DNA from: Dongiaceae bacterium
GTDB taxonomy: Bacteria > Pseudomonadota > Alphaproteobacteria > SHNJ01
Reading direction: 5' to 3'
DNA length: 64,000 bases
Assembly (NCBI GenBank): GCA_050182275.1
Contig: JBFXCK010000006.1
Coordinates: 23,759-87,758 of the forward strand
The translations under genes and the position numbers were made by a program. The notes under the pieces were generated by a model that was given only the letters and a program-made list of their open reading frames with translations, was not told the DNA's origin and made no database searches. Shown here in pieces: positions 35,735 through 62,971 of the stretch; the first letter of the stretch is position 1, and each line of letters starts with the position of its first letter.

Positions 35735-35820
<86 letters not shown>

Positions 35821-36148: not shown

Positions 36149-36358
36149 ATGGCGATTAGCACCCGCGATCCCGTCGATATGACTGGCCAGGAGCGTATGC
36201 AGGAAATCGCGGCCATTTTAGCCGCCTGTGTCCAAAGATTGCAAAAAAACGAGCAGAAACAATGCGATAAAGCCAATTTCGAGAGAAGTTTGACTGGACT
36301 TCAAGGGCGAATGAAGCATTCGTGTGACCACGCTGAGAACCAGAGTGGAGATGCTTAA
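36149..36358 (+). CDS. Hypothetical element protein
   Basis: AAGGAGG RBS; ER..EIA.ILA motif; precedes DUF2924. Confidence 0.65.
   Translation: MAISTRDPVDMTGQERMQEIAAILAACVQRLQKNEQKQCDKANFERSLTGLQGRMKHSCDHAENQSGDA
36291..36324 (+). promoter_or_regulatory. Motif B, copy 1
   Basis: TGACTGGA-N10-GAATGAAGCATTCGTG. Confidence 0.7.
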
Positions 36359-36359
36359 T

Positions 36360-36857
36360 ATGGCAACGAATGTCCTGGCAGAATATGCTGCCCTGAACGC
36401 GATGGAGATTAAAGACCTGCTGGTCGAATGGAACAAGTATTTCGACCGCCCACCGTCATCGCACAACAACAAAACCTACCTCGTCAATCAGATCATCTAT
36501 CGCATTCAGGAGCTGACCTACGGCGGCCTGACCCGGCGCACGATTGATCGGCTGGAGGCGCTGGCCGAAAGCGAGGTTGCGAACCAGCGCAAGTCAAATC
36601 CCAGCCGCCTGGCGGTGGGAACACGGCTGGTGCGGGAGGTCAAAGGCGTTGAACACCATGTGCAGGTGCTGGCCGATGGGTATGAATATCAGGGTATGAA
36701 ATACCGCAGCCTTTCGGGCGTGGCTTTTGCCATCACCGGCACGCGCTGGAATGGGAACGAGTTTTTTGGCCTCGGCAAAAAGGATGACAGCGAGAAGCGG
36801 CCTTACCACCGATCAAGAAAATGGCTGGCAGAGCAAGCCAAAAAGGCCAAGTTATGA
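36360..36857 (+). CDS. DUF2924 domain protein
   Basis: YRIQELTYGGL, GTRLVRE..G..H.V, Y.SLS.VA.AITGTRWNG..FFGL. Confidence 0.88.
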   Translation: MATNVLAEYAALNAMEIKDLLVEWNKYFDRPPSSHNNKTYLVNQIIYRIQELTYGGLTRRTIDRLEALAESEVANQRKSNPSRLAVGTRLVREVKGVEHHVQVLADGYEYQGMKYRSLSGVAFAITGTRWNGNEFFGLGKKDDSEKRPYHRSRKWLAEQAKKAKL

Positions 36858-38221
36858 TCGGCACGAATTTACCAGAAAAGAAAATCCTGCGCTGCGCAAT
36901 CTATACCCGTGTTTCTGACGACGAAGGGCTGGATCAGGAATTTAGCTCGCTGGATAATCAGCGTGAAGCTGGCGAATACCATATCAAGGCGCAAGCCCAT
37001 GCAGGATGGAGGGTGCTGCCGGAGCGTTACGACGATGGCGGATATTCAGCCAAGGATTTGCACCGTCCGGCCGCCAAACGCCTCCTGCAGGATATCATGG
37101 ACGGCAAAATCGACGTTGTGGTCGTTTACAAGATCGACCGGATGTCGCGCAATATGTTCGACTTTGTCGACTTAATGAAGTTGTTCGAACAGCACAAGGT
37201 TACTTTCGTTTCGGTCACCCAGCATTTTAATACCGAAACGGCGATGGGGAAACTCATTCTGAATATCCTGCAATCCTTCGCGCAGTTTGAGCGTGAAATG
37301 ACCGCGGAGCGGATCCGCGATAAATTCGCCGCCTCGAAAATGAAGGGCATGTGGATGGGAGGGCCGCCGCCGCTGGGCTATGACGTGGTTGAGCGCAAGC
37401 TCATCACCAATCCCAAGGAAGCCAAGCTGGTCAACCATATTTTTGAACGATATGTCGCCTTGAAAAGCACTACCTTGCTCTGTGACGAGCTGAAGCGTGA
37501 CGGCCACCACACGAAAGCCTATATCAGCCGCAAGGAGCGGCCTGTCGGCGGGCAAACCTTTGTCACCAACTCTATTCTGACAGTCTTGCGTAACAGGCTT
37601 TACGTTGGGGAAGTCCACCACAAGGGCAAATATTACCCTGGCCAGCACAAGGCCATTGTACAGCGCGCCCTGTTTGAACAGGCGCAGGAAATTCTGAACC
37701 AGAATGGCGGTATAAAGCGCAAGCGCACCTGGACGATAAAATCGAAAGCCTTGCTGAAGGGATTGCTGGTCTGCGGTGGCTGCGAGGGAATGATGTCGCC
37801 TACCCACACGCGCAAGGGCAACAAGCATTATCATTATTACGTCATGAATTCTTATCGCCGGAATTCTTGCGAAGGCTGCCCCATGGATCGCATCCCTGCC
37901 GGCGAGATCGAAGCGGTGGTCAGCAGCCAATTAAAAGCCATACTGGCCTCGCCACAGATCGTAGTCGAAACCTGGCGCAAGCTGAAAACACGCAATGCCG
38001 CCTATCAGGAAAGCGACCTGCACGATGCCATGCGGGATCTGAACAACGTGTGGGATAGCCTAATCCCTGAAGAGCGCAAACGCATCGCCATTCTGCTTAT
38101 TGACCGCGTGGTCACGCGATCGGATGGAATCGACATTGAATACCGCGCCGATGGCTTCGAAACGATCATCGATGATCTGCAGCGGAAGCTGAACGCCAAC
38201 CAGGAAAGGAGATCAGCCTGA
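36854..38221 (+). CDS. Large serine recombinase
   Basis: CAIYTRVS, YDDGGYS, KIDRMSR, FAQFERE, zinc ribbon; ATGA coupling to DUF2924. Confidence 0.95.
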   Translation: MIGTNLPEKKILRCAIYTRVSDDEGLDQEFSSLDNQREAGEYHIKAQAHAGWRVLPERYDDGGYSAKDLHRPAAKRLLQDIMDGKIDVVVVYKIDRMSRNMFDFVDLMKLFEQHKVTFVSVTQHFNTETAMGKLILNILQSFAQFEREMTAERIRDKFAASKMKGMWMGGPPPLGYDVVERKLITNPKEAKLVNHIFERYVALKSTTLLCDELKRDGHHTKAYISRKERPVGGQTFVTNSILTVLRNRLYVGEVHHKGKYYPGQHKAIVQRALFEQAQEILNQNGGIKRKRTWTIKSKALLKGLLVCGGCEGMMSPTHTRKGNKHYHYYVMNSYRRNSCEGCPMDRIPAGEIEAVVSSQLKAILASPQIVVETWRKLKTRNAAYQESDLHDAMRDLNNVWDSLIPEERKRIAILLIDRVVTRSDGIDIEYRADGFETIIDDLQRKLNANQERRSA

Positions 38222-38223
38222 CA

Positions 38224-38640
38224 ATGAGCCATGTACGAATAGAAAACAGTAAAATCATCGTCCACGTCCCGCTGAATTTGCGAACGTGGGGCGGCAAGAA
38301 AGTTATTGTCGGCCCGCAAGGAAAGGATTTGCGGGCGCTGGAGCTAGATATCCGCAAGGATGAAAAATTGCTCAAGGCGCTGGGGCGCGCCTATCGTTGG
38401 CATGGCTGGATTTTAACAGGCAAATACGCGACCGTGCAGGAAATGTCGGAGAGACAGAAAATCAACAAATCCTATATGCAGCGCATGATGCGGATCATGC
38501 AGTTGTCGCCCAAGATCGTGGAAGCCATCCTCGACGGCCAGCAGCCGGAGGGCTTTGCCTTACGGGATATCGAGCAGACCTTTTCGCCGCTTTGGTCTGA
38601 GCAGGAAAAGCAATTCGGTTTTACTTTCCCTCCTGCATAA
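38224..38640 (+). CDS. Recombinase-associated HTH-like protein
   Basis: GGKK, KALGRAYRW, L.PKIVEAILDG.QP; directly follows the recombinase. Confidence 0.7.
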   Translation: MSHVRIENSKIIVHVPLNLRTWGGKKVIVGPQGKDLRALELDIRKDEKLLKALGRAYRWHGWILTGKYATVQEMSERQKINKSYMQRMMRIMQLSPKIVEAILDGQQPEGFALRDIEQTFSPLWSEQEKQFGFTFPPA

Positions 38641-39031
38641 ACCGCTTTCTAGCGGCTAAAATTCTGTCATGATTCGTGTCTGCCCAATTTATCAATTCCC
38701 AAAGAGGTGGCAATAACGACCGTCCCAGCGGCGTCAGGCTGTATTCCACGCTAGGTGGTTTGGTGGCATAAACCGTTCGGTCGATCATGCCGTCCATTTC
38801 AAGGTCTCGCAGCGCTTGCGTTAAAACTCGCTGGGACATTTCTGGAATTTCTCTTTTCAATTCCCCGAAGCGCCAGGGACGCAGCGCCAAAGTGATCAAA
38901 ATCAGGACAATCCACTTGCCGCCAATACGATCAAGCGCATCCCGATATGGATAAGATTGAGGATTTTGAAACCTCTCTTTCCAGGTACGGCGGCGCTCTT
39001 GTAATTTTCTGGTGGCGTCGCTAGTCGGCAC
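38621..39031 (-). CDS. HxlR family transcriptional regulator
   Basis: IGGKWIVLIL, RFGEL, LRDLE.DG, PP.VEYSLT.LG. Confidence 0.92.
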   Translation of the reverse strand: MPTSDATRKLQERRRTWKERFQNPQSYPYRDALDRIGGKWIVLILITLALRPWRFGELKREIPEMSQRVLTQALRDLEMDGMIDRTVYATKPPSVEYSLTPLGRSLLPPLWELINWADTNHDRILAARKRFMQEGK

Positions 39032-39093: not shown

Positions 39094-40002
39094 CTAAGAA
39101 CAGTTTTCTTTACAATCAACTGTTTCAAATTCGATAGTGGAGTGCTGGATATTGTGATTAATTAGAAGAGTTTTCAGGCTTGCCTTCACTTCTTCCATGG
39201 ATTTCAGGTCTGCAATTACAACATGGGCTTCCAAAGCGTTTCTTTGCTCATCAAGTCGTCTCATATGAACATGATGAACGCTGGAAACACCTTTTAATTG
39301 CTGCATATCATGGATGATGGCCTCTGGATTTATACCTTCCGGCGTACCGTCCATAAGCAAATTCAAAACGGCTGGAAACTCCTTCACGGCCTGCAGCATG
39401 ACATATGCCGATATGACGAGCGTTATGATCGGATCAACAATCGTCCACCCGTAAAGCAAAATTAATGCGCCACCGATCATCACGCCTACGGATGAGAGAG
39501 CGTCTGCTATGTTATGCAGAAACGCCGCGCGGATATTCTGGCTTGTTTTGGGTTCCTTCCATGTTAGCGCTGCGGTTGCCGCGTCAATTATCAGAGCAAT
39601 GCCTGCCACGATGATGACCGTCCAACCCTCAACCGGCTCTGGCTCGATAAAACGGATAATCGCTTCGGTGCCGAGCCAAAAGCCAATCAGGATAAGAGAA
39701 GTCAGATTTATCAGCGCTGCTATGGTTTCTACACGCTGGTATCCATAGGTGCGCTTGCTATCCGGCTTTCGTTTGGCAATGCGCCGGGCAATCACGGCAA
39801 GCAAAAGAGAAGCGGCATCGCTAAAATTATGCAGAGCGTCGGCAATCAACGCCAAGCTGCCGGAGAATATCCCGCCTATGATTTGGGCCACTGTAAGTCC
39901 GACATTGATAACCACAGCCACGGAAAGTTTAGTATTCGTCATGTCACGCGCTGCTTGATGATGATTGTGTCCGTCGTGATTGTGGCCGTGGTTATCGCTC
40001 AT
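39094..40002 (-). CDS. czcD: CDF transporter CzcD-like
   Basis: His-rich N-terminus, ADALHNFSD, AFLHNIADA, HH.H. Confidence 0.88.
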   Translation of the reverse strand: MSDNHGHNHDGHNHHQAARDMTNTKLSVAVVINVGLTVAQIIGGIFSGSLALIADALHNFSDAASLLLAVIARRIAKRKPDSKRTYGYQRVETIAALINLTSLILIGFWLGTEAIIRFIEPEPVEGWTVIIVAGIALIIDAATAALTWKEPKTSQNIRAAFLHNIADALSSVGVMIGGALILLYGWTIVDPIITLVISAYVMLQAVKEFPAVLNLLMDGTPEGINPEAIIHDMQQLKGVSSVHHVHMRRLDEQRNALEAHVVIADLKSMEEVKASLKTLLINHNIQHSTIEFETVDCKENCS

Positions 40003-44964: not shown

Positions 44965-46333
44965 TTTTCTGTTCCTTTGTAGCTGTATTCTCTCTGTGTG
45001 CATGGGCTTGAGCATCGTCGTGCGTCGCGGCGATTCTTTCGAGTGCAGCGCGTTGCCGGTGATAATCGAGCGATACTTCATTAAGCTGCTTGCGCGCCTC
45101 GAATAATGTCCGCTGGGCATCCAAGACTTCGAGATAGTTAAATTTACCAGCGTCATAACCATCTCGCGCGAAACGGAACGCTTCTACTGCGCCCGGCAAC
45201 ACGGAAGATTTCAAAGCAACAGCCTCGCTGTAAGCATTTGAATAATTGCCGTACAACTCGGTTAACGCAGCCTCAAGATTGAGACGTGCGCTTTGCTCAT
45301 CAAGTGCGGCAGCTGTCACGTCATGACCAGCACGCTCAATGCCTGCGCGGTTCATATTGAAAACTGGAATCGGGATGGAAAGTCCAACAATGAAGGCTTG
45401 CGCATTATCTCCCCTGAAATCCCTTACGCCGAAGTTCAAAGTGGGATCAGGGACGGCATTGGCCTTTTCAAGCGACAATCCAGCTTTGGCGCGATCAATG
45501 CTCGCGCGAAGGCTCATTGCGTCTGGTGTTTTTCTGAGACGTTCACGATATTTTTCAACTGGTTCGGGCTGTTGCGGTTCTGGCAAGCTATCGATGCTGG
45601 CCGTAAAGTCTCCGGTATCGCCGCCCATCAGGGATGACAACGCCTGTTTCTTTGCGGCAAGGTTCCTGTAAGCGCGATCAAGAGCAATTTTGCTGGAAGA
45701 TAATTCAATCTCTGCTTTGTTTTTCTGGATATATGGCTCTTTTCCCGCCTGCACCTTGGCGACCACGCTGTCACGCACTTCGGTGGCCAGGTTTTGCTCT
45801 TCTTCTAGAATAGATACTTCCTGCTGGGCTGCGGCAACTTCCGCAAAAGCTATAGTGACATCGCGGATGAGGTTGAGCGTTACCCCATCACTGGTAAAAT
45901 GCGCGCTGTCTTTTTCGGCATCGGCAATGCGTGTGCGGCCACTACGCTTGCCGGGCATTTCAATAAGCTGCGAAACGCCATAAGTCATCTCGGCGTTATC
46001 CAAGCTACGGTAGGCTTGATCTCCGTAAATATTTTCAGCCTCGACCGACAATGAAGGATTGGGCAAAGCTCCCGCAGCCGAACGATTGGCATCTGCAGCG
46101 CTGACGCGGGCGGACGATGCTCCAAGCATAGGGGATTTCTCAACGGCTCTTTTAATTGCTTGATCCAGCGTAAGCGCCGTCTTAGCGATGGGTTGAACAA
46201 TCAGCGCTTCAGCCATCGGCGGGGCTGGCTTCGCTTCCTGAGCATATGCAGGGAGCGCTGGCGGCAAAGAAACCGTCGTCAGCAAAGCAAATATCATGAG
46301 CGGGATATTCATCCCAAATCTAGGGGTAGCCAT
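44945..46333 (-). CDS. czcC: Outer membrane factor CzcC (TolC family)
   Basis: LPNPSL, IPIPVFN.N, YLEVLDAQRTL. Confidence 0.92.
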   Translation of the reverse strand: MATPRFGMNIPLMIFALLTTVSLPPALPAYAQEAKPAPPMAEALIVQPIAKTALTLDQAIKRAVEKSPMLGASSARVSAADANRSAAGALPNPSLSVEAENIYGDQAYRSLDNAEMTYGVSQLIEMPGKRSGRTRIADAEKDSAHFTSDGVTLNLIRDVTIAFAEVAAAQQEVSILEEEQNLATEVRDSVVAKVQAGKEPYIQKNKAEIELSSSKIALDRAYRNLAAKKQALSSLMGGDTGDFTASIDSLPEPQQPEPVEKYRERLRKTPDAMSLRASIDRAKAGLSLEKANAVPDPTLNFGVRDFRGDNAQAFIVGLSIPIPVFNMNRAGIERAGHDVTAAALDEQSARLNLEAALTELYGNYSNAYSEAVALKSSVLPGAVEAFRFARDGYDAGKFNYLEVLDAQRTLFEARKQLNEVSLDYHRQRAALERIAATHDDAQAHAHRENTATKEQKNEQTKN

Positions 46334-46432: not shown

Positions 46433-46789
46433 TCAAGAAAGGATTCGAGGAGGGCGTTTTAATCCGGATATAAAGTCATCATCCGGATCGGAATTGATAT
46501 TGGTAAAGGCAGTTTTTCTAACTGGAACTTCTACATTAACGCTGAATTGCGTTATGGTGGCGTGGGCCGTACAGCAGTGACCGCAACTAATGCAGGAATG
46601 CTTTGCATCTTTTGAGGTCTGATCTTCTTTGGAGTCATTTTTAAGATGACTCGCGCAATCATTTTGAGCGCCATCTGTTTTCTCAGCGGAGAGACTTTGT
46701 CCACATTTCGGCGAATCAAAAGCGTGAGCAGCGGCTGAAAAGCCGCTGAATCCGATAGCAAAAATCAGCAATAGGATCAAAATTCTCAT
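46433..46789 (-). CDS. CzcI-like Cys/His-rich leader protein
   Basis: Signal peptide AAHA, HSCISCGHCC, C-terminal KRPPR. Confidence 0.8.
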   Translation of the reverse strand: MRILILLLIFAIGFSGFSAAAHAFDSPKCGQSLSAEKTDGAQNDCASHLKNDSKEDQTSKDAKHSCISCGHCCTAHATITQFSVNVEVPVRKTAFTNINSDPDDDFISGLKRPPRILS

Positions 46790-47556
46790 AGTAACTACAT
46801 AGCATACCCAGACTGTGTTAACAATATCTTAGCGAATATTCTTCGTCTTTCTGTCGCGCTGGGGCGATTAAAACGCGTTTCAGCCTAACAGTGCAAACTA
46901 TCGACTATAGTTTCCTTATGCAAATTTAGACGATTGGCTCAGATCACCAGCCGTGAAGATCGCGATCAGGCCGGCTCCTTCCTCAATGCCTCCCCTTAGA
47001 AATTTTAAGAAGGCCACCTTCACAGGAGGGAGGACGCAACATCCGAATCCAAATCAATCATGAAAACAAAATCCGGCCTTGAGCAATCATGAGCGATTTA
47101 TTGTCACACTGATGTATGCCAGTTGAAATTTTTTTTACGCTGCTGTTTGTGCCAAAAACATACACCTGTATCAAAGCAGTTTAGCAAAACCTTTTTACAT
47201 CAATCGTATCGCCCACGCGTTTTGTACGCGGTCGTTACTTTGCAATCTCTATCAGAGCAAAAACTGCCTTCTTGTGCGCTTCACGCCCATTCATACGCTC
47301 GCGCCCATATCGCCGTAATAGCTCTGATAGTCCGTCAGCTGCATAGCGATGAACCGTCCCGGAAAAGGGAAGATGTGAACATTGCTATGAATGAGAACCA
47401 TGCTGAATTACCGATTTGTCTTCAAGCCTTAAACGTGCGCACGCCATTGGGGTGCGGCTTTCGCGCGTCCGGTGTTCACGCATGAACTAAGTTCAGACTG
47501 CGTAGTATCACTCCGCCATTTTTCTTTTTTCCTGGGCCTAATCAAGGAAAAAGAAA

Positions 47557-48129
47557 ATGGCCAACAACCGCTACAGCGGCGTAGATTCCTACGCCGCTTT
47601 TTTTATTGCGTATAAAGCAAAAACCCTCACCCGAATGCCGATTTTTACTTTGGGTGATTATGACGATCTCCAACAGGAATTGATGCTGGCTTATCTGCAT
47701 GCGTGGCCTGGGTTCGATCCAACCAAAGGTGATCGGCGCAGCTTCATCAAAACTGTGGTCAACACGAAAGCGTTGATGCTGGTGCGCGATGCGGAACGGC
47801 AAAAGCGCTGGACAGGCGCGCGGGTCGTGTCTCTGTCCGCGCCGGTGGGCGACGGTGACGATCCGACAACGCTGGCCGATGTCATCGATCATGAAAGCGG
47901 TCTATGGGGCAACGTGTTCCAGCACCATAGCCAAGCCTTTGCCGAGCAGAGGCTCGATATCAGACGCATACTGGCCGTCATGCCGGATGATCTCCGACAG
48001 ACCTATCAGGCATTGTCAGAAAATAGCGTTTCTGAGGCTGCGATCATCCTGGGCATTCCCCGCACCACCATGTCCAGCCGATTGAAAAAATTGAGAAAAT
48101 TCGTGGAGGACTATATGGCGCAAAAATAA
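47557..48129 (+). CDS. Element-encoded sigma-70 family (ECF-like) factor
   Basis: DDLQQEL, FDP.KG...SFI..VV (region 2), C-terminal HTH SVSEAA.ILGIPRTT. Confidence 0.8.
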   Translation: MANNRYSGVDSYAAFFIAYKAKTLTRMPIFTLGDYDDLQQELMLAYLHAWPGFDPTKGDRRSFIKTVVNTKALMLVRDAERQKRWTGARVVSLSAPVGDGDDPTTLADVIDHESGLWGNVFQHHSQAFAEQRLDIRRILAVMPDDLRQTYQALSENSVSEAAIILGIPRTTMSSRLKKLRKFVEDYMAQK

Positions 48130-48425: not shown

Positions 48426-50561
48426 GTGACACCGGATAAAGGGACACCGCCAAAGATCATTCCCCTGAAGCCGCTCTCGGCATCGGAATTGCGCCCGCGC
48501 GTGCTGAACGCATTGCCTGACATTCTCCGATACCTTCTTCCCGCTGGCATTATTCGTGGTCGAAAATTCATGGTCGGCGATATCGGCGGCAACAAGGGCG
48601 ACAGTCTGGTTGTCGAGCTGCATGGTGAGAAAGCCGGACTCTGGCATGATTTTGCCACCGGCGCTGGAGGTGACGTTTTCGATCTATGGGGCGCGGTCAA
48701 AGGCCTCGATCGGCAATCGCAGTTCCCGGCGCTGCTGCAGGATATTCAAAGCCATCTTGGCGCTGGTCTGCCGCCCGCGCCGCGTGCATCTCCGCGATCC
48801 GCTCCGGTCAGCAGGAAACTCGGCAACCCTACCGCAAAGTGGGATTACACAGATAGTGCCGGCCAGATCATCGCCTCCGTTTATCGCTACGATCTACCGG
48901 ACGGCTCCAAGGAATTCAGGCCGTGGGATGCCGTGCGCGGGGTGATGAAAGCGCCAGATGTTCGCCCGCTTTATAACCAGCCCGGCCTGAAAAACGCCGA
49001 GATGGTCGTCCTGGTCGAAGGCGAGAAATGTGCCGAGGCGCTTTTATCGGTGGGCGTGTGCGCGACCACGGCCATGAATGGAGCAAAAGCGCCGGTGGCT
49101 AAAACAGACTGGTCGCCTTTGCAAGGAAAAAGAGTGATCATCTGGCCGGATCACGACGATCCAGGCTTGGATTACGCGCGCAACGCTGCCAGTGCGGCCG
49201 CCCGCGCTGGTGCTGTCCATGTGCATATCCTGAAGATCCCGCTCGAAAAACCGCAAGCGTGGGATGCCGCTGACGCGGTGGCCGAAGGATTGGACATTCC
49301 CGCCATTCTCAGAAATTGGGAGCGTCTTGTGGCCAAGGATACGCCGCCACCGCGCAAAACTCTGCCGCTTTACAGTATCGCGGAGCTGCAGCAGGACAAC
49401 ACGCCCATTCCTGATGATCTGATTTCCCCGCGCATCTTAACTCCCGGTGGCCTGCTGGTGTTCGGTGGTGCGCCGAAGGTCGGTAAAAGCGATTTCCTGA
49501 TTGCGCTTCTGGCGCACATGGCGGGCGGTGCGCCATTTCTCGGCATGAGCTGCAAGCGTCCCTTGCGCGTGTTTTATCTGCAGGCCGAGGTTCAATACCA
49601 CTATCTGCGCGAGCGTGTGCAACGGTTGGCTTTCACAGAGGCCGCCACGCTGTTCCTGAATTCCAATTTCGTTGTCACGCCGCAAATTTCCATCACGCTG
49701 AATGAGGCCGGTATTGAAACGGTGGTGGATGCCGTCCGTCAGCGTTTTTCCGATGCGCCGCCCGACATCATTGCCATCGATCCCCTGCGCAATGTTTTCG
49801 ACGGCGGCGGGCTTGGCGGCGAAAATGATAATGACGCGATGATGTTCTTTCTGGCGCAGCGCCTTGAGGAGTTGCGTCGCCGCATCAACCCGAATGCTGG
49901 AATCATCCTGGCGCATCATACCCGAAAGCTGTTCAAGAAAGCGGCGGAAGAAGACCCGTTTCAGGCATTAAGCGGCGCTGGGGCGCTGCGTTCCTATTAC
50001 ACCTCCGGCATCATGCTCCACCGGCCAGACGAGAAGCGGCCAGAACGGCTTTTGCTTTTTGAATTGCGCAACGGCCCGGAACTTCCACCCAAGATGATCG
50101 TCCGTGCCGCGCAGGGTTGGGAAGAAACCGAAAACTATGTCGGGCGTCTGGCTTTCAAGGAACAGGGCGAGCGCCAGGATGCCGAACGCCTGCGCAAAAC
50201 CGACACCATCATTCGCCTGATTTACGAACAGGCGCTGACGGGGCAAATATTCACCGCCAATCAATTCGCCGAAACATTCGAGAATAAAGATGGGCTGGGC
50301 AGCAGCCGCACAATCCGCGAGCGCCTCAGCGTGCTTGCCACCAAAGGCCATGTGAAGTTTTTCAAGAACGCCGATGTGTATGGGCTGCCGCTTCTGGCGC
50401 GCAGTCGCCAAGGTTATCTCTGCGTCGACGGCATGATGTTGAACACGGGCCGCATGATCGTGCCGACGCATTACAAGGATTCGCAATCCGGCGAAATTTT
50501 GCCCGTGGTTTACACGCCGAGCCTTCCGTTCTCCGCCGCTGATGACGGGGAGGAATCGTGA
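48426..50561 (+). CDS. Primase (TOPRIM)-helicase (RecA/AAA_25) fusion
   Basis: W.DFATG.GGD, VEGEKCA, WPDHD..G, GAPKVGKS, IDPLRN, HHTRK. Confidence 0.9.
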   Translation: MTPDKGTPPKIIPLKPLSASELRPRVLNALPDILRYLLPAGIIRGRKFMVGDIGGNKGDSLVVELHGEKAGLWHDFATGAGGDVFDLWGAVKGLDRQSQFPALLQDIQSHLGAGLPPAPRASPRSAPVSRKLGNPTAKWDYTDSAGQIIASVYRYDLPDGSKEFRPWDAVRGVMKAPDVRPLYNQPGLKNAEMVVLVEGEKCAEALLSVGVCATTAMNGAKAPVAKTDWSPLQGKRVIIWPDHDDPGLDYARNAASAAARAGAVHVHILKIPLEKPQAWDAADAVAEGLDIPAILRNWERLVAKDTPPPRKTLPLYSIAELQQDNTPIPDDLISPRILTPGGLLVFGGAPKVGKSDFLIALLAHMAGGAPFLGMSCKRPLRVFYLQAEVQYHYLRERVQRLAFTEAATLFLNSNFVVTPQISITLNEAGIETVVDAVRQRFSDAPPDIIAIDPLRNVFDGGGLGGENDNDAMMFFLAQRLEELRRRINPNAGIILAHHTRKLFKKAAEEDPFQALSGAGALRSYYTSGIMLHRPDEKRPERLLLFELRNGPELPPKMIVRAAQGWEETENYVGRLAFKEQGERQDAERLRKTDTIIRLIYEQALTGQIFTANQFAETFENKDGLGSSRTIRERLSVLATKGHVKFFKNADVYGLPLLARSRQGYLCVDGMMLNTGRMIVPTHYKDSQSGEILPVVYTPSLPFSAADDGEES

Positions 50562-51875: not shown

Positions 51876-52298
51876 ATGAAACTGCATTTTCCTTGGGACG
51901 AAATCGAAAAACTGATTGAGGAGGTCGACACCGCCAAAGCCGCTCAGCCTCTTTATGGTGAGGACACTGGCAAAGGCTTATGGTTGGTCGGTGATCACGG
52001 CGTGTATCTAATGCCCAACACGGCTGACGGAGTTCACCACAGCAAGCTCGGCAAGGACGACCGCCGACTTGTCGCCTATGCCAGAGAATGCAATCCCGAT
52101 ACGATGGAGTTTGACGACTGGTGGGAAAATAAACGCCGTTCCTTCGGCGGTGACGACGGGGTGGAGTTTCTGGATTTAAAAGAAATTCAGGCGCTGGCGG
52201 CGCACGGATCCGTGGATGGCCACAGGCCAGATAGTCTTGCCATTCTCTTTTCTCTGAATCAATTTGAATTAAGTGTTGTGTTTCATCTGGAGGATTAA
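51876..52298 (+). CDS. DUF3085-like protein
   Basis: LVGDHGVYLM, YA..CNP, FGGDDGVE. Confidence 0.75.
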   Translation: MKLHFPWDEIEKLIEEVDTAKAAQPLYGEDTGKGLWLVGDHGVYLMPNTADGVHHSKLGKDDRRLVAYARECNPDTMEFDDWWENKRRSFGGDDGVEFLDLKEIQALAAHGSVDGHRPDSLAILFSLNQFELSVVFHLED

Positions 52299-52487
52299 GA
52301 GTCCCGTTATTGGGTAGAGTTATCCACTTCTGACTCTTGCCCTGGCATTATTTGCCCTCCCTGCTATTCGCGCAGAGTGGTGGAGATGCTCGAGCTTTTG
52401 ACCAGAGAACCCTGAATTCTCAACGATATAAGGGGGTTATCGCAAAAGTAGGTGGAATATTAACGAAAGTTTGCTATAATGGTCATC

Positions 52488-52910
52488 ATGATGTTGAAGC
52501 GTCTCATATGCGCCCTTGTCGCGCTAAGTTTTGTCTTCGCTGGAACACCCGTTCTGGCGGCGGTAAAAGAGATGCCATGTCCGATGGAAAAAATACATTC
52601 CGAGATGCAGAAATCCTCGGCTCAGCCTGATATGTCCGACATGAAGATGGGCATGAAAGATTGTGACAAATGCCCAAAATCAGCTGAGAAGAAGCAAGCC
52701 GAGAAAACCAAAAAAGGCGGCTGTTGCGACGATCAGGTATGTAGCGCCAAATGTGCGGCCCTAAGCAGCGCTGGTGGGCAATTGTTTTTGTCGAATGATA
52801 TTCAATGGAGTGGGCCAGCCGCAAAGGAAAAAGTGACGTTTTTGCCATACCTTTTGCCTCCGTCTCATCTCCTGAAAACACCCGAAAAACCACCCAAACA
52901 TCTCTCGTAA
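52488..52910 (+). CDS. Cys/Met-rich leader protein (CopL/CutF-like)
   Basis: Signal peptide, MPCPM, CDKC, CCDDQVCSAKC, C-terminal EKPPK. Confidence 0.8.
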   Translation: MMLKRLICALVALSFVFAGTPVLAAVKEMPCPMEKIHSEMQKSSAQPDMSDMKMGMKDCDKCPKSAEKKQAEKTKKGGCCDDQVCSAKCAALSSAGGQLFLSNDIQWSGPAAKEKVTFLPYLLPPSHLLKTPEKPPKHLS

Positions 52911-53040
52911 AGGGCGAAGTGTGTCCGGATTTTGCGTTGACATAAACGTCGTGCGCTAAAAATCCTGACATCTAGCCCTCATTGCACTGCGGCTTTACGA
53001 TCTTTCGTAGGGCCGACCGAACGCATACGAGAGGTTTATC

Positions 53041-54282
53041 ATGGTTAGAATTTTAATACTTATTGCGCTGATCGTTTTCAGCATCGCGGCTCCTGCCCAG
53101 GCAGCGGAAAAAGCCAAGCCCACTACGTCTGAGACGCATGAACAAAACGAAGCCCGTTTTGGGTTGCTGCTGGAAAAACTGAAACAGCATCCGGAAATCC
53201 AGGCCTATGTCAGCCGCGCGGAATCTTCCCGCTACAATGCAACGGGTGAGTTGGGCTTGCCTGATCCGATGCTCTTTATTCAGGAAGAGGATTATCCCAT
53301 CGGCACCACCATGTCGCGCGATCAGGAGCAGAAGATGATCGGCTTCAAGCAGGTCATTCCAGCTTTCGGAACGCGCGGCGCAAAATCCGAACGTCTGGGC
53401 ATTGAATCCGGTAAAAACAAGTTGCTGGGCGATTACGCCTATGCAGTCATGAAATCCCAACTCATCACCGCGCTTGCCAATTTGGCGCGCATTGAGGAGC
53501 AGGAAAAATTACTGACGCAGCAGACTTCTTTATTTGGTTCTGAGCGCACGAGCCTGAAGGGGCGGATTGCTGCCAATCAGGCGTCGCAAAGCCAGCTTGT
53601 CCTGAGTGAGGCCGATAGCACGGATGTTGGCTTGATGCGTGCCGATCTTGATGAGGAAAAGCATGAGATCATGGCGATGCTTGCCAATATGGTCGGCGAG
53701 ACGCCGGATGTGCCGTTGCCTGCAATCAACAAAGTCGCCTGGGATCAGGATGTCGAGAAAACCTACCCCGTTCAGGTCGCCACGCAGGATGTCGAGATAG
53801 CACGCAAAGACGTTGACCTGCGCGAATCCGAGTTCAATCCCAATTTCGAGGTGCAGGCAAGCTATGGCCGCATGAATGGGGGCGATAATGCCGGAACGAT
53901 CATGGTGGGCATGAGCATCCCGCTCTGGGCCGCGCAGAACCAGCAACCCAAATTATCGGGCGCGAAATCGGGCGTGCGCGCGGCGGAATCCGATCAGGAA
54001 AATATCAAGCGCCAGACGCTGCAGAAACTAACCCATCTTGAGGCCCAGATCGATGCCAGCGATCGCAGGATCGAGTTGCTCAAGCATAAAGAATCCCTCC
54101 TGAACGCATCACGCGGTGCGCAAACCAGGGAATATGAGGCAGGAAAAAGCGATTTTTCCATGCCTCTGAAAACACGGCGCGACATGGTGTCCGTCCGTTA
54201 CCAGCTGGCGGCGGAACGGGCGAAACACACCGCGCTGATCGCTGATTTCAACCACTATTTCATCGAAGGAGAAGAAAGATGA
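53041..54282 (+). CDS. TolC-family outer membrane factor (CusC-like)
   Basis: LPDPM, Q.IP..G, MSIPLW; operon context. Confidence 0.85.
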   Translation: MVRILILIALIVFSIAAPAQAAEKAKPTTSETHEQNEARFGLLLEKLKQHPEIQAYVSRAESSRYNATGELGLPDPMLFIQEEDYPIGTTMSRDQEQKMIGFKQVIPAFGTRGAKSERLGIESGKNKLLGDYAYAVMKSQLITALANLARIEEQEKLLTQQTSLFGSERTSLKGRIAANQASQSQLVLSEADSTDVGLMRADLDEEKHEIMAMLANMVGETPDVPLPAINKVAWDQDVEKTYPVQVATQDVEIARKDVDLRESEFNPNFEVQASYGRMNGGDNAGTIMVGMSIPLWAAQNQQPKLSGAKSGVRAAESDQENIKRQTLQKLTHLEAQIDASDRRIELLKHKESLLNASRGAQTREYEAGKSDFSMPLKTRRDMVSVRYQLAAERAKHTALIADFNHYFIEGEER

Positions 54283-54599
54283 AAAAACTACTGAGCATCC
54301 TTGCCGTTTCAATGCTGCTGATGACAGGCGCGGCTTATGCCGCTGACCAATCCGATCCCGCGAACGCACCGTCTCCCCTGACCATCGAACAGGCCACGCA
54401 GATGATGCATGAGGGAAAACCAGTTTATTCCTGCTCCATGAAAACGACCTGGTTTTCCGATAAGCCTGGGCAATGTCCGTGCTGCACGATGGCCTTGGAA
54501 AAGGTGAAAGACATCAAAGACGGCCAGGCGGTGTTGGAGGAAAGTGGATCCAGCATGCAGATGGATATGAAAGACATGAAAATGATGGAGAGTAAATAA
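54279..54599 (+). CDS. Periplasmic heavy-metal-binding domain protein
   Basis: YSCSM....SDKPGQCPCC.M.L, Met-rich tail. Confidence 0.8.
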   Translation: MKKLLSILAVSMLLMTGAAYAADQSDPANAPSPLTIEQATQMMHEGKPVYSCSMKTTWFSDKPGQCPCCTMALEKVKDIKDGQAVLEESGSSMQMDMKDMKMMESK

Positions 54600-56005
54600 T
54601 GAAAAAATCGTTGCCGCTTCTGATCGGATCAATCCTCTGTGCCAACGCCGTGTTGAACGGCCTTGGTGCGGTCACGACATTTAGTCCTCATGCCAGCAGT
54701 TTCCAAAAGATATTTGGAATAAGCGTTGCGCATGCCGAAGAAGCGGCAGCGGTTAAATACACCTGTCCCATGCACCCGCAGATCATATCCGATACACCAG
54801 GAAAGTGTCCGATCTGCGGCATGGATCTGGTGCAAATTTCCGCTTCGGGTGGATCCCATGCGCACGAGGAAAAAATAGATGAGAGCGCCATGGTCACCGA
54901 TCAAAAAGACCGTAAAATTCTTTACTGGTACGATCCGATGGTGCCGGAAAAGCGATTTGATAAACCAGGCAAGTCGCCCTTCATGGATATGGAGCTGGTG
55001 CCCAAATACGCCGATGAGGTGCAAAGTGATGCCTCCGGCAAGCCTGTCATCTCGATCAACGCCGATACGGTGCAAAAAATGGGCGTCCGCATGGAAAAAG
55101 TGACCAAAGGCAGCTTCGCCCAGACGATCCGCGCCACCGCCATTGTCACGGAAAACGAACGCAGCCGCTGGGATCTGTTCAGCCAGGTTGAAGGACGTGT
55201 AGAAGATCTGCGCTATAGCGCGGCTGGTGACCGCGTCAAAAAAGGCGATCTGTTTTATACGCTTTATAGTCCGGAGCTTTTATCTTTGCAAAACGACTTT
55301 ATTGCCGCACGCAAGGCAGGACTTCAGGATCTGGCGCAAGCTGCCAAGAAAAGAATGAAGCTGTTGGGGGTTGATGAGAAGGTCATCGCTGATCTTTCAA
55401 AAACCGGCAAGGCTTTTGAGAAAGTGCCGTTCTATATTCCGGCTGATGGAATTCTTGCCCGCCTTGAAATTCGCAATGGCCATTATCTAAAAATGAATGA
55501 CGAGATCGGCCATATTCAAGACCTCTCCACCGTATGGCTGGAAGCGGCGGTACCGGAAAAGGATCTCTCGTCGATTAAGGAAGGCGATATTGCCGAGATC
55601 GCGATAGGCCCGCAAAAATACGAGGGGAAAGTCGATTACATCTATCCCACCATCGATAGTGAGGCGCGGATTGGCAAAGTGCGGGTCGTCGTTGAGAATA
55701 AGGACGGCCTGTTGCGGCCTGCATCCTATGCCAGCATAAACTTTTCTTCCGGTCAGGCGGCGGAACAGGTCACGGTTCCGAGCGAGGCGGTTTTGCGGAA
55801 TAGCGAAGGCGAGCATGTCATCGTCGCTTTGGGGAGCGGTAAATTCCAGGCGCGCAGCATTAAAACAGGCGGCACGAGCGCTGGCCGCACGGAAATCGTC
55901 TCCGGCCTACAGGAAGGCGACGATGTCGTGGTCAGCGCGCAGTTCCTGATCGACTCAGAATCATCGCTTCAAGAGTCGCTTGGTAAATTGTCGGGAGGTC
56001 AATAA
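54599..56005 (+). CDS. cusB: Membrane fusion protein CusB
   Basis: YTCPMHP..CPICGMDL, YWYDPM..FDKPGKSPFMDMEL, QFLIDSES. Confidence 0.92.
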   Translation: MKKSLPLLIGSILCANAVLNGLGAVTTFSPHASSFQKIFGISVAHAEEAAAVKYTCPMHPQIISDTPGKCPICGMDLVQISASGGSHAHEEKIDESAMVTDQKDRKILYWYDPMVPEKRFDKPGKSPFMDMELVPKYADEVQSDASGKPVISINADTVQKMGVRMEKVTKGSFAQTIRATAIVTENERSRWDLFSQVEGRVEDLRYSAAGDRVKKGDLFYTLYSPELLSLQNDFIAARKAGLQDLAQAAKKRMKLLGVDEKVIADLSKTGKAFEKVPFYIPADGILARLEIRNGHYLKMNDEIGHIQDLSTVWLEAAVPEKDLSSIKEGDIAEIAIGPQKYEGKVDYIYPTIDSEARIGKVRVVVENKDGLLRPASYASINFSSGQAAEQVTVPSEAVLRNSEGEHVIVALGSGKFQARSIKTGGTSAGRTEIVSGLQEGDDVVVSAQFLIDSESSLQESLGKLSGGQ

Positions 56006-60721: not shown

Positions 60722-60743
60722 ACAACTCGATCTTTTTTCATGA
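59409..60743 (+). CDS. Overlapping-frame protein, probable beta subunit of the C5 methyltransferase
   Basis: 444 codons open in +1 frame; six WxT repeats; LNPLFVEWLMGWP; TGA overlaps next ATG. Confidence 0.75.
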   Translation: MVWLFLPPDAIEHARKAEPCSEFPSAPELAASISDSTSPSQNIELWLTSNGNPTQRPLSWRGWKMRPWIALLSGTMLPLSMADRGAAWWISFTAATRANHFPSPDASSATKTRAISGRTSPASFQKSSLPCVSSKTSADIYDWASSKSTMTFDKWVIALRRGCLLRRKSARPTGANGSSSWLTPRAQETSEKQETFVRRNGDRTDQCFGSLTAQTALWPTVTATDGTKGGPNSRHGSGSLHLPAAAVQQQWYTPNVPNGGRSNPKEMSATGALPNGKKRQVGLENQAVQIWPTPMANPNSNRQTKPTPSQLKGEHGLNLAMVAVTHTWPTPRACSGKRSSGANRTELVRSWATPTTRDWKDGTATADVKTNCLLGRQAPRSMSDGMESRLTLNPLFVEWLMGWPIGWTDCGSAATGLFRWLQLMRSELSRLLQTSTDEQLDLFS

Positions 60744-61719
60744 GCGTCCGCATATTACAGGGAGATTGCCGCGATCTGCTGAAGACGCTGCCCGATGGCT
60801 CCGTGCATTGCTGCGTGACATCGCCGCCATATTTCGGTTTGAGAGATTATGGCATCGACGGCCAGATGGGATTGGAAGAAACGCCGGACGATTACGTTCA
60901 GCAGCTTGTTTCCCTCTTTGATGAAGTTCGCCGTGTGCTGCGTGATGATGGAACTCTGTGGCTCAATCTCGGTGATAGCTACGCCGGGAGTGGCAAAGGC
61001 CGCAATGCTGACGGAACGCATAGCGTCGGCGGAAAGCAGGATACAAATGTCGGTACCAATATCGGCAAGCTGGCAAAGACAGCGGCTCCATGTTGTAAGC
61101 CCAAAGATTTGATTGGCATTCCCTGGCGCGTTGCATTCGCGCTGCAGAAAGCTGGCTGGTATTTGCGGAGCGACATCATATGGCACAAACCAAATCAGAT
61201 GCCGGAGTCAGTGACGGATCGCCCGACCAAGGCGCATGAATACATTTTTTTGTTTAGCAAATCGCCGACCTACTTTTACGACGCCACGGCGATCCGCGAA
61301 GAGCAAACAGAATCCTCTCGCGTTCGCTCCCAATACGCATGGCGCGGGCGCACGGATGACGGCAGCAACGGCGCGCGCGGTGGGTCAACCTTCAAGCGCA
61401 CGGCGGCCAGCGGCGAAAAGATCGGCACATCCCGGCAGACGGCAAGCGCAACAAGCGCAGCGTCTGGACGGTCGGAACGCGCCCATTTAAGGGCGCACAT
61501 TTTGCGACCTTCCCGACGACGCTAATCGAACCGTGCATCCTTGCTGGTTGCCCGGAAGGCGGCACGGTACTGGATCCCTTCGGCGGCGCTGGCACGACTG
61601 GACTGGTGGCAGAACGCCTGCGGCGCAACGCCATATTGATTGAACTGAACCCCCGTTACGCGGCGATGGCCGAAGAACGGATTAGAACGGATGCGCCGAT
61701 GCTGGCGCGGCAGGATTGA
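60740..61719 (+). pseudogene. N4/N6 DNA methyltransferase with internal frameshift
   Basis: TSPPY in first frame; HFATFP and VLDPFGGAGTT only in the -1 frame after ~61430. Confidence 0.85.
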
Positions 61720-61723
61720 TTTC

Positions 61724-62971
61724 ATGGCTGAAACAAATACACGCATGGCCGATCGCATTGAGATTTGGCCGGTGGGAAAACTTGTCCCTTACGACAAGAA
61801 CCCGCGCACCCATTCGACGGAACAGGTAAATCAAATTGCGGCAAGCATCGCTGAATTTGGCTTTTTGAATCCTATTCTCGTTGATACGACGGCGGGGATC
61901 ATTGCAGGGCATGGCCGCCTCCAGGCGGCAAAGCAACTCGGCCTCGCGCAAGTCCCTGTCGTCGTACTTGATCACCTGACGGAAGCGCAAAAACGCGCCT
62001 ACGTCATCGCCGATAATAAGCTGGCGCTCAACGCTGGCTGGGACGAAGATTTGCTGCGCTCGGAAATGGCGGCGCTGGCAGCGGAAGATTTTGACCTTCC
62101 TCTCATTGGCTTCTCGGACGAGGAGCTGGCCGGTTTGTTGGCCGAGCCAAATGTTGTTGAAGGCCAAACGGACGAGGACGCCGTTCCCGAAGCGCCGGAA
62201 ACGCCGGTCAGCAAGCCTGGCGATCTCTGGCGGCTTGGCAACCACCTTTTGCTTTGTGGCGACAGCACCGTGCTGGCCAATGTCGAGAGGGTGCTGAATG
62301 GTGCGTTGGCCGACATGGTGTTCACGGATCCACCCTATAACGTGGATTACGGCAACGCCGCTAAAGACAAAATGCGCGGCAACAAGCGCACAATCATGAA
62401 CGACAATTTGGGCGAAGGCTTCGAAAAGTTTCTCTACGATGCCTGCGTAAACATGCTGACGGTTTGCAAGGGGGCGTTGTATGTTTGCATGTCCTCCAGC
62501 GAACTGCATTCCCTGCAAAAAGCCTTCACCGAGGCGGGCGGCAGATGGTCAACATTTGTCATCTGGGCGAAAAATACCTTCACGCTGGGCCGCGCCGATT
62601 ATCAGCGCCAATACGAGCCGATCCTCTATGGCTGGAAACAGGGCAACGATCATTATTGGTGCGGCGCGCGCGACCAAGGCGACGTCTGGTTCGTCAACAA
62701 GCCGGTACGGAACGAATTGCACCCGACCATGAAGCCGGTGGAGCTGGTTGAACGCGCTGTGAACAACAGCAGCAAAAGCCGTGACATCGTGCTGGATTGT
62801 TTCGGTGGCTCCGGCACCACGATGATCGCATGTGAAAAGCTGAACCGCCAATGCCGGATGATCGAGCTGGATCCCAAGTACGTCGATGTGATCGTCAAGC
62901 GCTGGGAGGAATTTACAGGACGGAAGGCGGAGTTGATGCCGCCTGAAGAAAAAACCACGCCGGACGATTGA
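61724..62971 (+). CDS. ParB-N domain + N6/N4 DNA methyltransferase
   Basis: NPRTH, AGHGRL, ADNKL; DPPY, HPTMKP, DCFGGSGTT. Confidence 0.93.
   Translation: MAETNTRMADRIEIWPVGKLVPYDKNPRTHSTEQVNQIAASIAEFGFLNPILVDTTAGIIAGHGRLQAAKQLGLAQVPVVVLDHLTEAQKRAYVIADNKLALNAGWDEDLLRSEMAALAAEDFDLPLIGFSDEELAGLLAEPNVVEGQTDEDAVPEAPETPVSKPGDLWRLGNHLLLCGDSTVLANVERVLNGALADMVFTDPPYNVDYGNAAKDKMRGNKRTIMNDNLGEGFEKFLYDACVNMLTVCKGALYVCMSSSELHSLQKAFTEAGGRWSTFVIWAKNTFTLGRADYQRQYEPILYGWKQGNDHYWCGARDQGDVWFVNKPVRNELHPTMKPVELVERAVNNSSKSRDIVLDCFGGSGTTMIACEKLNRQCRMIELDPKYVDVIVKRWEEFTGRKAELMPPEEKTTPDD

Follow-up and report, generated by a model that had tools for sequence, protein, structure and literature searches.

The locus

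The stretch of DNA analysed here, which we call the window, comprises 64,000 nucleotides (nt) from a Dongiaceae bacterium (assembly GCA_050182275.1, contig JBFXCK010000006.1, positions 23,759 to 87,758 of the forward strand). The genome it belongs to (G000) amounts to 1.8 Mb in 42 contigs. In the window, four genes for a cus-type metal pump of the resistance-nodulation-division (RND) class follow an open reading frame (ORF) of 140 codons that we call the cus leader. Our subject is this leader and the RNA between it and cusC, the first gene of the pump operon. The leader is a real, conserved gene, and its last codons together with most of its stop codon are predicted to pair with cusC's Shine-Dalgarno (SD) sequence, in the window as well as in the 19 related loci of our main comparison. 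The coordinates of the features are collected in Table 1.

The leader gene and its protein family

A word-indexed protein search returned 37 protein clusters related to the cus leader, at identities down to 42%. Their alignment (A1, numbered according to a form of the protein with 143 amino acids, aa) keeps the cysteine residues as well as the ending K-T-P-E-K-P-P-K-x-L-S, and C83, C88 and C92 are invariant in it. When 1.84 billion representatives were searched exhaustively with a profile, no more than 57 clusters (at 50% identity) matched the leader at E ≤ 1e-3. In a second alignment (A6), which consists of 48 profile-search clusters and the cus leader protein itself (P0001), C88, P138 and P139 are invariant, C82, C83 and C92 are nearly so, and the consensus tail reads TQ[DE]RPPKxLS.

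The gene likely starts at ATG 52488 or ATG 52491. Translation from ATG 52479 would yield the 143-aa form, but one of the related loci (L016) carries ATA at the equivalent position, which argues against that start. The protein contains eight Cys, nine Met and three His residues and includes the motifs PCP, CDKCP and CCDDQVCSAKC. From the CxxxC motif to EKPP the spacing is 43 residues. The N-terminus consists of K-R, then LICALVALSFVFAG, then PVLAA/PVQA; by inspection it resembles a signal peptide, and its basic residues, hydrophobic core and small-residue end are kept in both alignments. At the other end, the ORF closes with T-P-E-K-P-P-K-H-L-S and the stop codon TAA (52908–52910). This tail had been pointed out in a prediction made earlier from the letters of the window alone (the original prediction), together with the observation that the proline pair lies as far from the stop as it does in the leader of the nearby czc operon. 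Reading and translating both genes gave the same picture.

Among curated families, the best match of the cus leader is CopL_fam of NCBIfam (NF033807; E 5.8e-5, 23.7 bits). We also compared 49 relatives of the leader with the CopL_fam and DUF2946 models, and 32 of them match CopL_fam at E ≤ 0.01, the best at 3.2e-7. Genome-wide, the cus and czc leaders of the window are the sole two CopL-like matches. Among named relatives, those closest to the locus are metagenome-assembled genomes of Alphaproteobacteria, one of which is labelled Micavibrio sp. An attenuator built on a short leader peptide can be ruled out, since the ORF is a conserved gene for a 140-aa protein with a signal-peptide-like N-terminus.

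Predicted pairing between the leader tail and the cusC Shine-Dalgarno sequence

Near the end of the leader ORF, CTCTCGTA (52902–52909) is the exact reverse complement of TACGAGAG (53026–53033), just ahead of cusC. The minimum free energy (MFE) structure of 52880–53060 has −65.6 kcal/mol (z −6.42), a value that none of 200 shuffled sequences equals. In this structure a helix of 10 bp (52900–52909 with 53026–53035) closes a three-way junction, and the 130 nt between leader and cusC are almost wholly base-paired. Two hairpins that join the strands had been foreseen in the original prediction, and the MFE structure has them at about 52911–52979 and 52989–53015. The tail had also been proposed to pair with the SD of cusC, and it does so in the 10-bp helix; the AU bulge that was drawn between this helix and an AAAC/GUUU pairing is not found, as the MFE structure has A-U and U.G pairs there. 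When windows of 16 nt along the leader transcript were scanned for duplexes with the SD region, the leader tail was the best partner among the 506 windows (−14.1 kcal/mol, against a mean of −5.0 and a standard deviation of 2.5).

The pairing is predicted in related loci as well. From 27 related loci we removed three truncated ones, four duplicates and L007, which has another downstream gene; the remaining 19 loci and the window make up a set of 20 distinct cus-type sequences. In all 20, the MFE structure pairs at least five of the six SD bases with the tail of the ORF (mean probability 0.80–1.00). The 9-bp core of the helix is kept, position by position, in 18 to 20 of the 20 loci in an anchored pair table. 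Beyond the SD core there are compensatory changes from UA to CG, AU to GC and GC to AU. The outer pairing of AACCA with UGGUU is found in only four of the 20 (the window, L001, L004 and L016).

A covariance model trained on 10 close cus-type loci, when run on 10 distant ones, found every one of them at the coordinates where it should lie (E 6.6e-8 to 1e-3). In the model-guided alignment, which was fitted to the structure and hence leans towards it, 93.0% of the cells are paired (81.8 ± 0.7 in 500 shuffles) and 28 of the 46 pairs change on both sides (11.7 ± 1.9, with no shuffle reaching 28). Controls in which the structure was slid along the alignment gave at most 53.8% paired cells and at most 13 two-sided pairs. 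Two-sided changes occur in 14 of the 25 pairs in the region of hairpin P1 (helices 2–4) and in 10 of the 11 pairs of P2 (helix 5), where 95.6% of the cells are paired. In terms of the model, the SD-sequestering junction is conserved, and covariation supports all of its helices. A joint MAFFT/RNAalifold analysis of all 20 sequences (A2) predicted just nine pairs, because a length difference of 2 nt after the stop shifts two groups of sequences out of register.

The effect of a ribosome on the tail can be imitated in silico. If the tail is masked through the stop codon, the mean probability that an SD base is unpaired rises in all 20 sequences, from 0.00–0.18 to 0.19–0.55. For the window, masking raises it from 0.01 to 0.40. 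At gathering thresholds, Rfam has no match in the window except for two tRNAs, and in 52400–53100 there is none even at E ≤ 1. We also considered an intrinsic terminator or attenuator between leader and cusC and an internal sigma-70 promoter for cusC; there is no terminator-like site in 52250–53100, and a simple scan found no such promoter.

A second feature of the intergenic RNA is a short box, AAGTGTGTCC. It is invariant 5–7 nt past the leader stop in the genome's own copy and in 22 related loci (L001–L006, L008, L009, L011–L016, L018, L020–L023 and L025–L027), although the leader proteins of those loci share only some 35% identity. The box pairs with different partners in the two groups of sequences, and its invariance is not accounted for by base pairing alone. 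The window holds the box a single time, and on its reverse strand there is no copy with one mismatch or fewer. A small ORF starting from a GTG inside the box was dismissed: judged by eye, its frames are not conserved between the groups.

Promoter and transcript

The box TGcTATAAT (52472–52480) ends 7 nt ahead of ATG 52488, which had suggested to the original prediction that the mRNA is leaderless. This idea gains support from the related loci. In every homologous upstream region that we read, a −10-like TGnTAnnnT box ends 6–9 nt ahead of the ATG, despite differing sequences, and only L010 and L027 lack the TG extension. None of these regions has an SD sequence at a usable distance from the leader ATG. 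This conserved layout fits a leaderless mRNA, as far as promoter-like sequence can tell. A simple scan for two hexamers found no promoter at the leader because the −35 sequence is too weak.

The putative promoters of the cus leader (52453–52480, plus strand) and of the czc leader (46793–46835, minus strand) share ATATT..TTAAC just 5' of the TGCTAT... −10 box. The spacer motif ATTAAC/TTAAC and a −35 TTGATT recur in distant homologous loci. The shared motif could be a common operator or it could reflect mere common ancestry.

Four metatranscriptome runs yielded contigs (depth 2–6) within 52300–54300. Parts of cusC (53504–54292) are covered in X15–X17, and 52977–53127, 53156–53306 and 54214–54300 are covered in X18. 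The leader ORF is covered by no contig, at a depth and in a form (contigs only) too sparse to speak for a start, a strand, a level or an absence.

The czc leader

About 6 kb from the cus leader and on the same mobile island, a second leader precedes a czc operon. It contains six Cys, five His and one Met; residue counts thus agree with the earlier description of a Cys/His-rich czc leader and a Cys/Met-rich cus leader. In both proteins four residues separate PP from the stop. The czc family alignment (A3) has the tail [LF]KRPP[RK]xL[VSAG]-stop, and the tail common to both leaders is [KR]PP[KR]xL[SVA]-stop. The profiles of the two families align over 117 columns (hhalign probability 69%, E 4.3e-5).

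The original prediction regarded the two leaders as built from unrelated sequence, and hence as two independent instances of one architecture. We cannot agree with this. Both match CopL_fam, their profiles align and their tails are shared, so the two leaders appear to be paralogues of a single family that have diverged; only at the level of RNA sequence do they differ. In a class-wide sample of 401 genomes, the czc leader family was present in five, the source genome included. A scan of viral contigs for this family gave 33 pattern matches, none of which was confirmed.

On the minus strand, the czc tail GAAUCCUU (46446–46439) is predicted to pair with AAGGAUUU (46344–46337) ahead of czcC, whose ATG is at 46333. 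The fold has −47.9 kcal/mol (z −4.62), and none of 423 windows is a better partner for the SD than the tail. We compared four czc-type loci (the window, L047, L051 and L052; L048 and L050 were not used). In L052 the tail pairs directly with the SD as well (CCUCGUUU with AAACGAGG, z −4.3). In L047 (1492–1980), where the leader ends KRPPRVFA, four segments take part: the tail pairs with GGGCAAAA, which directly follows the stop, and it is an internal CUUUUGCC that covers the SD. The predicted layout of L047 resembles the alternative pairing of a classic attenuator.

The operon and its island

In the pump operon, permease, adaptor and outer-membrane factor each score above the cut-off of their models, as is expected of a heavy-metal RND pump. 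The adaptor also reaches the RND_mfp model (125.1 bits, cut-off 94.9). Its best NCBIfam match is CusB (PRK09783), at 246 bits and so under that model's cut-off of 390. The permease carries AIGAMVDASIVMVEN at about residue 421, which we take to resemble the motif of Cu/Ag-type pumps. The small HMBD protein presumably sits where CusF does in E. coli, and the Pfam scan lists no CusF family match for it.

Table 1. Features of the leader region, the cus operon and the surrounding island (positions in the window)
Feature	Position	Strand	Basis
Putative promoter: −35-like TGGAAT (52453–58), 16-nt spacer with ATTAAC, extended −10 TGcTATAAT (52472–80)	52453–52480	+	
cus leader, sensor/leader gene: 140-aa CutF-like (CopL-family-like) secreted Cys/Met-rich protein	52488–52910	+	translation and conservation
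Signal-peptide-like N-terminus MMLKRLICALVALSFVFAGTPVLAA, cleavage site guessed	52488–52562	+	inspection; pattern kept in A1 and A6
Cys cluster CCDDQVCSAKC with CxxxC (Cys codons 52740–42 and 52752–54)	52722–52754	+	A1, A6
AACCA, outer helix with UGGUU (53042–53046) across the cusC start codon	52888–52892	+	MFE
Pro-Pro codons CCA CCC, putative stall site, four codons ahead of the stop	52890–52895	+	P138 and P139 invariant in A1 and A6
Anti-SD strand AUCUCUCGUA: His, Leu and Ser codons and first two bases of the stop codon	52900–52909	+	MFE; 20/20 loci
Hairpin P1 of the three-way junction	52911–52979	+	MFE
Invariant box AAGTGTGTCC, 6 nt past the stop	52917–52926	+	single occurrence per locus
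Hairpin P2 of the three-way junction	52989–53015	+	MFE
SD strand UACGAGAGGU; Shine-Dalgarno GAGAGG (53029–53034), 6 nt ahead of ATG 53041	53026–53035	+	
cusC-like outer-membrane factor, 413 aa	53041–54282	+	Pfam OEP, 85 bits (cut-off 22)
Small secreted Met-rich HMBD protein, 106 aa	54279–54599	+	Pfam HMBD (PF19335), 27.7 bits (cut-off 23.6)
cusB-like periplasmic adaptor, 468 aa, two N-terminal HMBD stretches	54599–56005	+	HlyD_D23 196 bits, HMBD 93 bits
cusA-like heavy-metal RND permease, 1048 aa	56005–59151	+	TIGR00914 CusA/CzcA, 1150.9 bits (cut-off 701.45)
Paralogous czc leader, 118 aa, Cys/His-rich, ends KRPPRILS-stop	46433–46789	−	CopL_fam, E 1.8e-4, 22.1 bits
DUF2924 and large serine recombinase (island)	36324–38221		
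HxlR/MarR-like factor (island)	38621–39031	−	
Cation diffusion facilitator (CDF) transporter (island)	39094–40002	−	
Extracytoplasmic function (ECF)-like sigma factor (island)	47557–48129		43.3 bits (cut-off 42.9)
Primase-like AAA_25/Toprim protein (island)	48426–50561		
Two DNA methylases (island)	60740–62971		

Both pump operons lie on what appears to be an integrated mobile element (35735–62971) beside a tRNA gene (35735–35817). Apart from the genes in Table 1, this island holds genes with DUF6362, DUF6900 and DUF3085. The original prediction had noted that no cusRS is in the window, and this agrees with our scans: no heavy-metal two-component genes are among the ORFs of the window that were scanned (a part of all ORFs). 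In the genome, no gene reaches the curated cut-offs of TIGR01386 or TIGR01387, the models for heavy-metal kinases and regulators, and two-component systems of the generic OmpR type are present. Regulator-free, as the switch had been called, is nevertheless unproven because an ECF-like sigma factor and an HxlR-type factor share the island, and the pumps may possibly be controlled at the level of transcription.

The region 52300–54300 is present in 14 DNA runs from nine studies, with 0.99–1.00 of the sampled words found. Each of these runs, which are labelled biofilm, groundwater, landfill, bioreactor, aquatic, freshwater and activated sludge, could be the source sample, and the finding does no more than hint at a wide distribution of the element or the organism.

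Proposed mechanism and alternatives

We consider it probable that the cus leader (52488–52910) is a CutF-type (DUF2946-like or CopL-like) nascent-chain metal sensor, which acts in cis ahead of the cusC-HMBD-cusB-cusA operon of a Cu/Ag-type RND pump. The proposal draws on CutF, for which a mechanism has been published that combines a signal peptide, a Cys motif, a C-terminal proline stall and a stem-loop over the SD of the downstream gene (PMC9973294). In the window, the mRNA would probably start at the ATG or within 1–2 nt of it and hence be leaderless. The signal peptide would drive co-translational export, so that the Cys cluster is already in the periplasm when the ribosome reaches the PP codons. 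As long as the RNA is free, the three final codons and the stop would pair with the SD strand of cusC, close the junction and block initiation at cusC. A ribosome on the last seven or so codons would cover the anti-SD strand and free the SD. Metal bound to the nascent chain would then lengthen the pause at PP-K and lead to more translation of cusCFBA. Our in silico result that masking the tail loosens the SD fits the RNA shielding that is seen as a feature of CutF.

Several points weigh against this proposal. For the cus leader, export dependence, stalling at PP and a response to Cu/Ag are inferred from published CutF work, so that everything the proposal says on metal, export and stalling is borrowed from there. 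Even for CutF, the tail alone gave no stall in a LepB fusion (PMC9973294), and the PP-K of the cus leader stands against the strong PPP of CutF. The family assignment is weak at the level of cut-offs: both the cus leader (23.7 bits) and the czc leader (22.1 bits) miss the 40-bit cut-off of CopL_fam. The Pfam model DUF2946 (PF11162, gathering score 23.7 bits) does not match the cus leader protein at E ≤ 0.1, and at E ≤ 0.01 it matches none of the 49 relatives and nothing in the genome. On the RNA side, two-sided changes within the tail/SD helix itself are confined to three positions and few lineages in the anchored table (L008/L009 and L010), and the helix is broken by an A.C in L025 and is one end pair short in L015 and L010. 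Other constraints act on the SD as well as on the Leu-Ser-stop codons, and the covariation counts come from an alignment fitted to the structure of the model. Even after masking, the SD is just 19–55% unpaired.

The loci themselves do not all speak with one voice either. L007 has no tail/SD pairing, no match to the covariance model and no invariant box; in this locus (1501–2300) the leader homologue ends RPPKTLS, and an HMBD gene follows 152 nt on, without a cusC-like gene. The original prediction had proposed to check whether the pairing covaries across cusC and czcC loci. This check came out well for the cus-type loci, with pairing in 20 of 20 and covariation, and mixed for the czc-type loci, of which only two of four (the window and L052) pair tail and SD directly. 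In the other two, the helix lies directly beside the SD (L051) or the anti-SD is an internal one (L047).

The alternative that we take most seriously, and that we still regard as unlikely, is constitutive translational coupling, in which the helix would merely link the translation of cusC to that of the leader and no pause would depend on metal. The leader protein would then be a stable, trans-acting periplasmic metal-binding protein (a chaperone, a buffer or a regulator like CzcI or CopL), and metal control would be transcriptional. Coupling fits the RNA data just as well as a sensor does, because every ribosome that finishes the leader ORF must melt the helix; this too counts against the sensor proposal. 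It would also suit a leader protein that is conserved over its whole length and not in the tail alone, an island with an ECF-type sigma and an HxlR-type factor, and a conserved promoter spacer, ATTAAC, that could be an operator. Moreover, CzcI of C. metallidurans has no proline motif and may act differently (PMC9973294). What coupling does not need is an invariant PP and a near-fixed [DE][RK]PPKxL tail, placed exactly where a ribosome would cover the anti-SD. Nor does it need a Cys-to-PP spacing of 43 residues, which is close to the 45 conserved in DUF2946 (PMC9426467). A role in trans is further disfavored by the finding that cutF fails to complement in trans and that the CutF protein is degraded after export (PMC9973294).

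Two further explanations place the control elsewhere in the RNA. In the manner of CruR, a stall at the PP tail, or the lifting of that stall by metal, might govern Rho-dependent termination or read-through in the 130-nt gap instead of access to the SD. The gap is similar in length to the 162 nt of CruR (PMC9426467), but its nearly complete base pairing would, by our reckoning, leave little unstructured RNA for Rho, and no intrinsic terminator-like site is found there. Furthermore, the feature that is conserved is pairing with the SD specifically, and CruR represses an importer under Cu, whereas an exporter has to be induced; we think this explanation improbable. Least probable among those we consider is that the junction serves mRNA stability or processing only, or that tail and SD are complementary as a by-product of their composition, the Leu-Ser codons being rich in pyrimidines and the SD in purines. 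Removal of the cutF-stem-loop region did lower the stability of cutOG mRNA (PMC9973294), CUC-UCG is inherently complementary to GAGAG, and the box AAGTGTGTCC could be a site for an RNase or a protein. Yet a by-product would hardly outdo all other windows as a partner of the SD, as the tail does among 506 in the cus and 423 in the czc transcript, and pairs outside the SD core are kept by compensatory changes. In addition, the cus leader, the czc leader and that of L052 have different tails that pair with different SD contexts.

If the leader is indeed a CutF-type sensor, one can go a step further. The two leaders might form a matched pair of self-contained, leaderless sensors with purely cis gating, one rich in Cys/Met for a Cu/Ag-type pump and the other rich in Cys/His for a Zn/Co/Cd-type pump; the cus RNA would then be a distinct three-way junction outside Rfam, and the box AAGUGUGUCC a further contact, for example with a pausing or terminating ribosome or with a factor. 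This is a tentative idea, and we are inclined to doubt it in its full form. If true, it would allow pumps that are transferred horizontally into small genomes without dedicated two-component systems for heavy metals to remain under control there.

Comparison with known systems

The mechanism itself is already known: a nascent-chain sensor like CutF or DUF2946 (Ozturk 2021, 2023, 2025; CruR, Roy 2022). The original prediction of a general translational switch for metal RND pumps is therefore not new, as the layout of CutF, the rules for finding its relatives and a proposal for heavy metals are all in print. OEP-type genes (CusC/CzcC/SilC) have even been reported as the commonest downstream neighbours of CutF-like genes (PMC9973294). 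Copper-induced stalling is reported to override EF-P, and a general heavy-metal strategy has been proposed (10.1101/2025.02.05.636593). Possibly new are the conserved leaderless layout, the three-way junction without an Rfam match whose anti-SD is embedded in the stop codon, and the invariant box AAGTGTGTCC.

The locus adds no new principle. "Transmembrane stalling" of the CutF type has been shown for a multicopper oxidase (CutF-CutO), and a related upstream ORF (uORF) for a TonB-dependent importer (CruR); the link to RND pumps has so far been one of gene neighbourhood only. In the literature that we searched, which was of limited coverage, we came across no paper in which a cus or czc pump was tested for a switch of the CutF type. 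What the locus provides is a clean RND example, with a 10-bp anti-SD helix, a covarying junction, a leaderless layout and a nearby paralogous sensor with other ligands. The paired cus and czc sensors make metal specificity directly testable by swapping. They may also help to explain how metal pumps remain inducible as they move between genomes.

CutF of R. capsulatus (cutFOG) is the closest parallel. Copper-dependent production of CutO needs translation of cutF, the Sec signal peptide, the CxxxC motif, the proline tail PEPEGPPPRL and the stem-loop (PMC9973294; PMC8456105). Like the cus leader, CutF is a small protein (118 aa against 140 aa) with a CxxxC about 40–45 residues before its proline motif. 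Its Sec-type signal peptide is matched in the cus leader by an N-terminus that looks like one. Its tail PEGPPPRL and the PEKPPKHLS of the cus leader are both proline motifs with charged flanks. In either case a structured intergenic RNA covers the SD of the next gene, in cis before a copper detoxification system that faces the periplasm. Published rules define CutF-like proteins as shorter than 150 aa, with PP in the last 15 residues, a Sec (SPI) signal peptide according to SignalP and a downstream gene that lies on the same strand; the lists B–D were built with iterative jackhmmer profiles and comprise 29 clusters of a sequence similarity network (PMC9973294). We read the corresponding features in the cus leader: 140 aa, PP near the end, a signal peptide (by inspection only) and cusC on the same strand after a gap of 130 nt. 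The two systems differ in that a multicopper oxidase stands downstream of CutF and an RND pump stands here. The CutF element is a stem-loop between cutF and cutO, whereas here the anti-SD consists of the last codons and the stop of the ORF and closes a three-way junction spanning 130 nt. The accounts of CutF, in the parts available to us, make no mention of a leaderless promoter layout or of an invariant box after the stop (PMC9973294).

CruR (Bp2923) of B. pertussis is a DUF2946 uORF with an intergenic region of 162 nt, and it works through stalling and Rho-dependent termination. With Cu present it represses a TonB-dependent importer, and it does not depend on its signal peptide (PMC9426467; PMC9973294). 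As in the cus leader, an exported-looking uORF that acts in cis combines a Cys motif with a C-proximal xxPP near the stop, and the spacing is similar (45 against 43 residues). In DUF2946 the motifs are CXXC and RAPP, about 45 residues apart (PMC9426467), whereas the cus leader has CxxxC and [DE][RK]PP and does not match the Pfam model. CopL of Xanthomonas and Stenotrophomonas is the best curated match of both leaders, under the cut-off, but its downstream gene is a multicopper oxidase and not an RND pump.

More remote parallels are found among the sensors of protein export. In SecM-secA, VemP-secDF and MifM-yidC2, as in our proposal, arrest on a secreted uORF melts a stem-loop and exposes the downstream SD (cited in PMC9973294). 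These systems sense export capacity, however, their arrest motifs are different and they have no Cys cluster. CusRS and CopRS, finally, the two-component systems that control cusCFBA in E. coli, yield the same output, a Cu/Ag RND pump that responds to metal in the periplasm. They do so through transcription and in trans, whereas the cus leader would act on translation and in cis.

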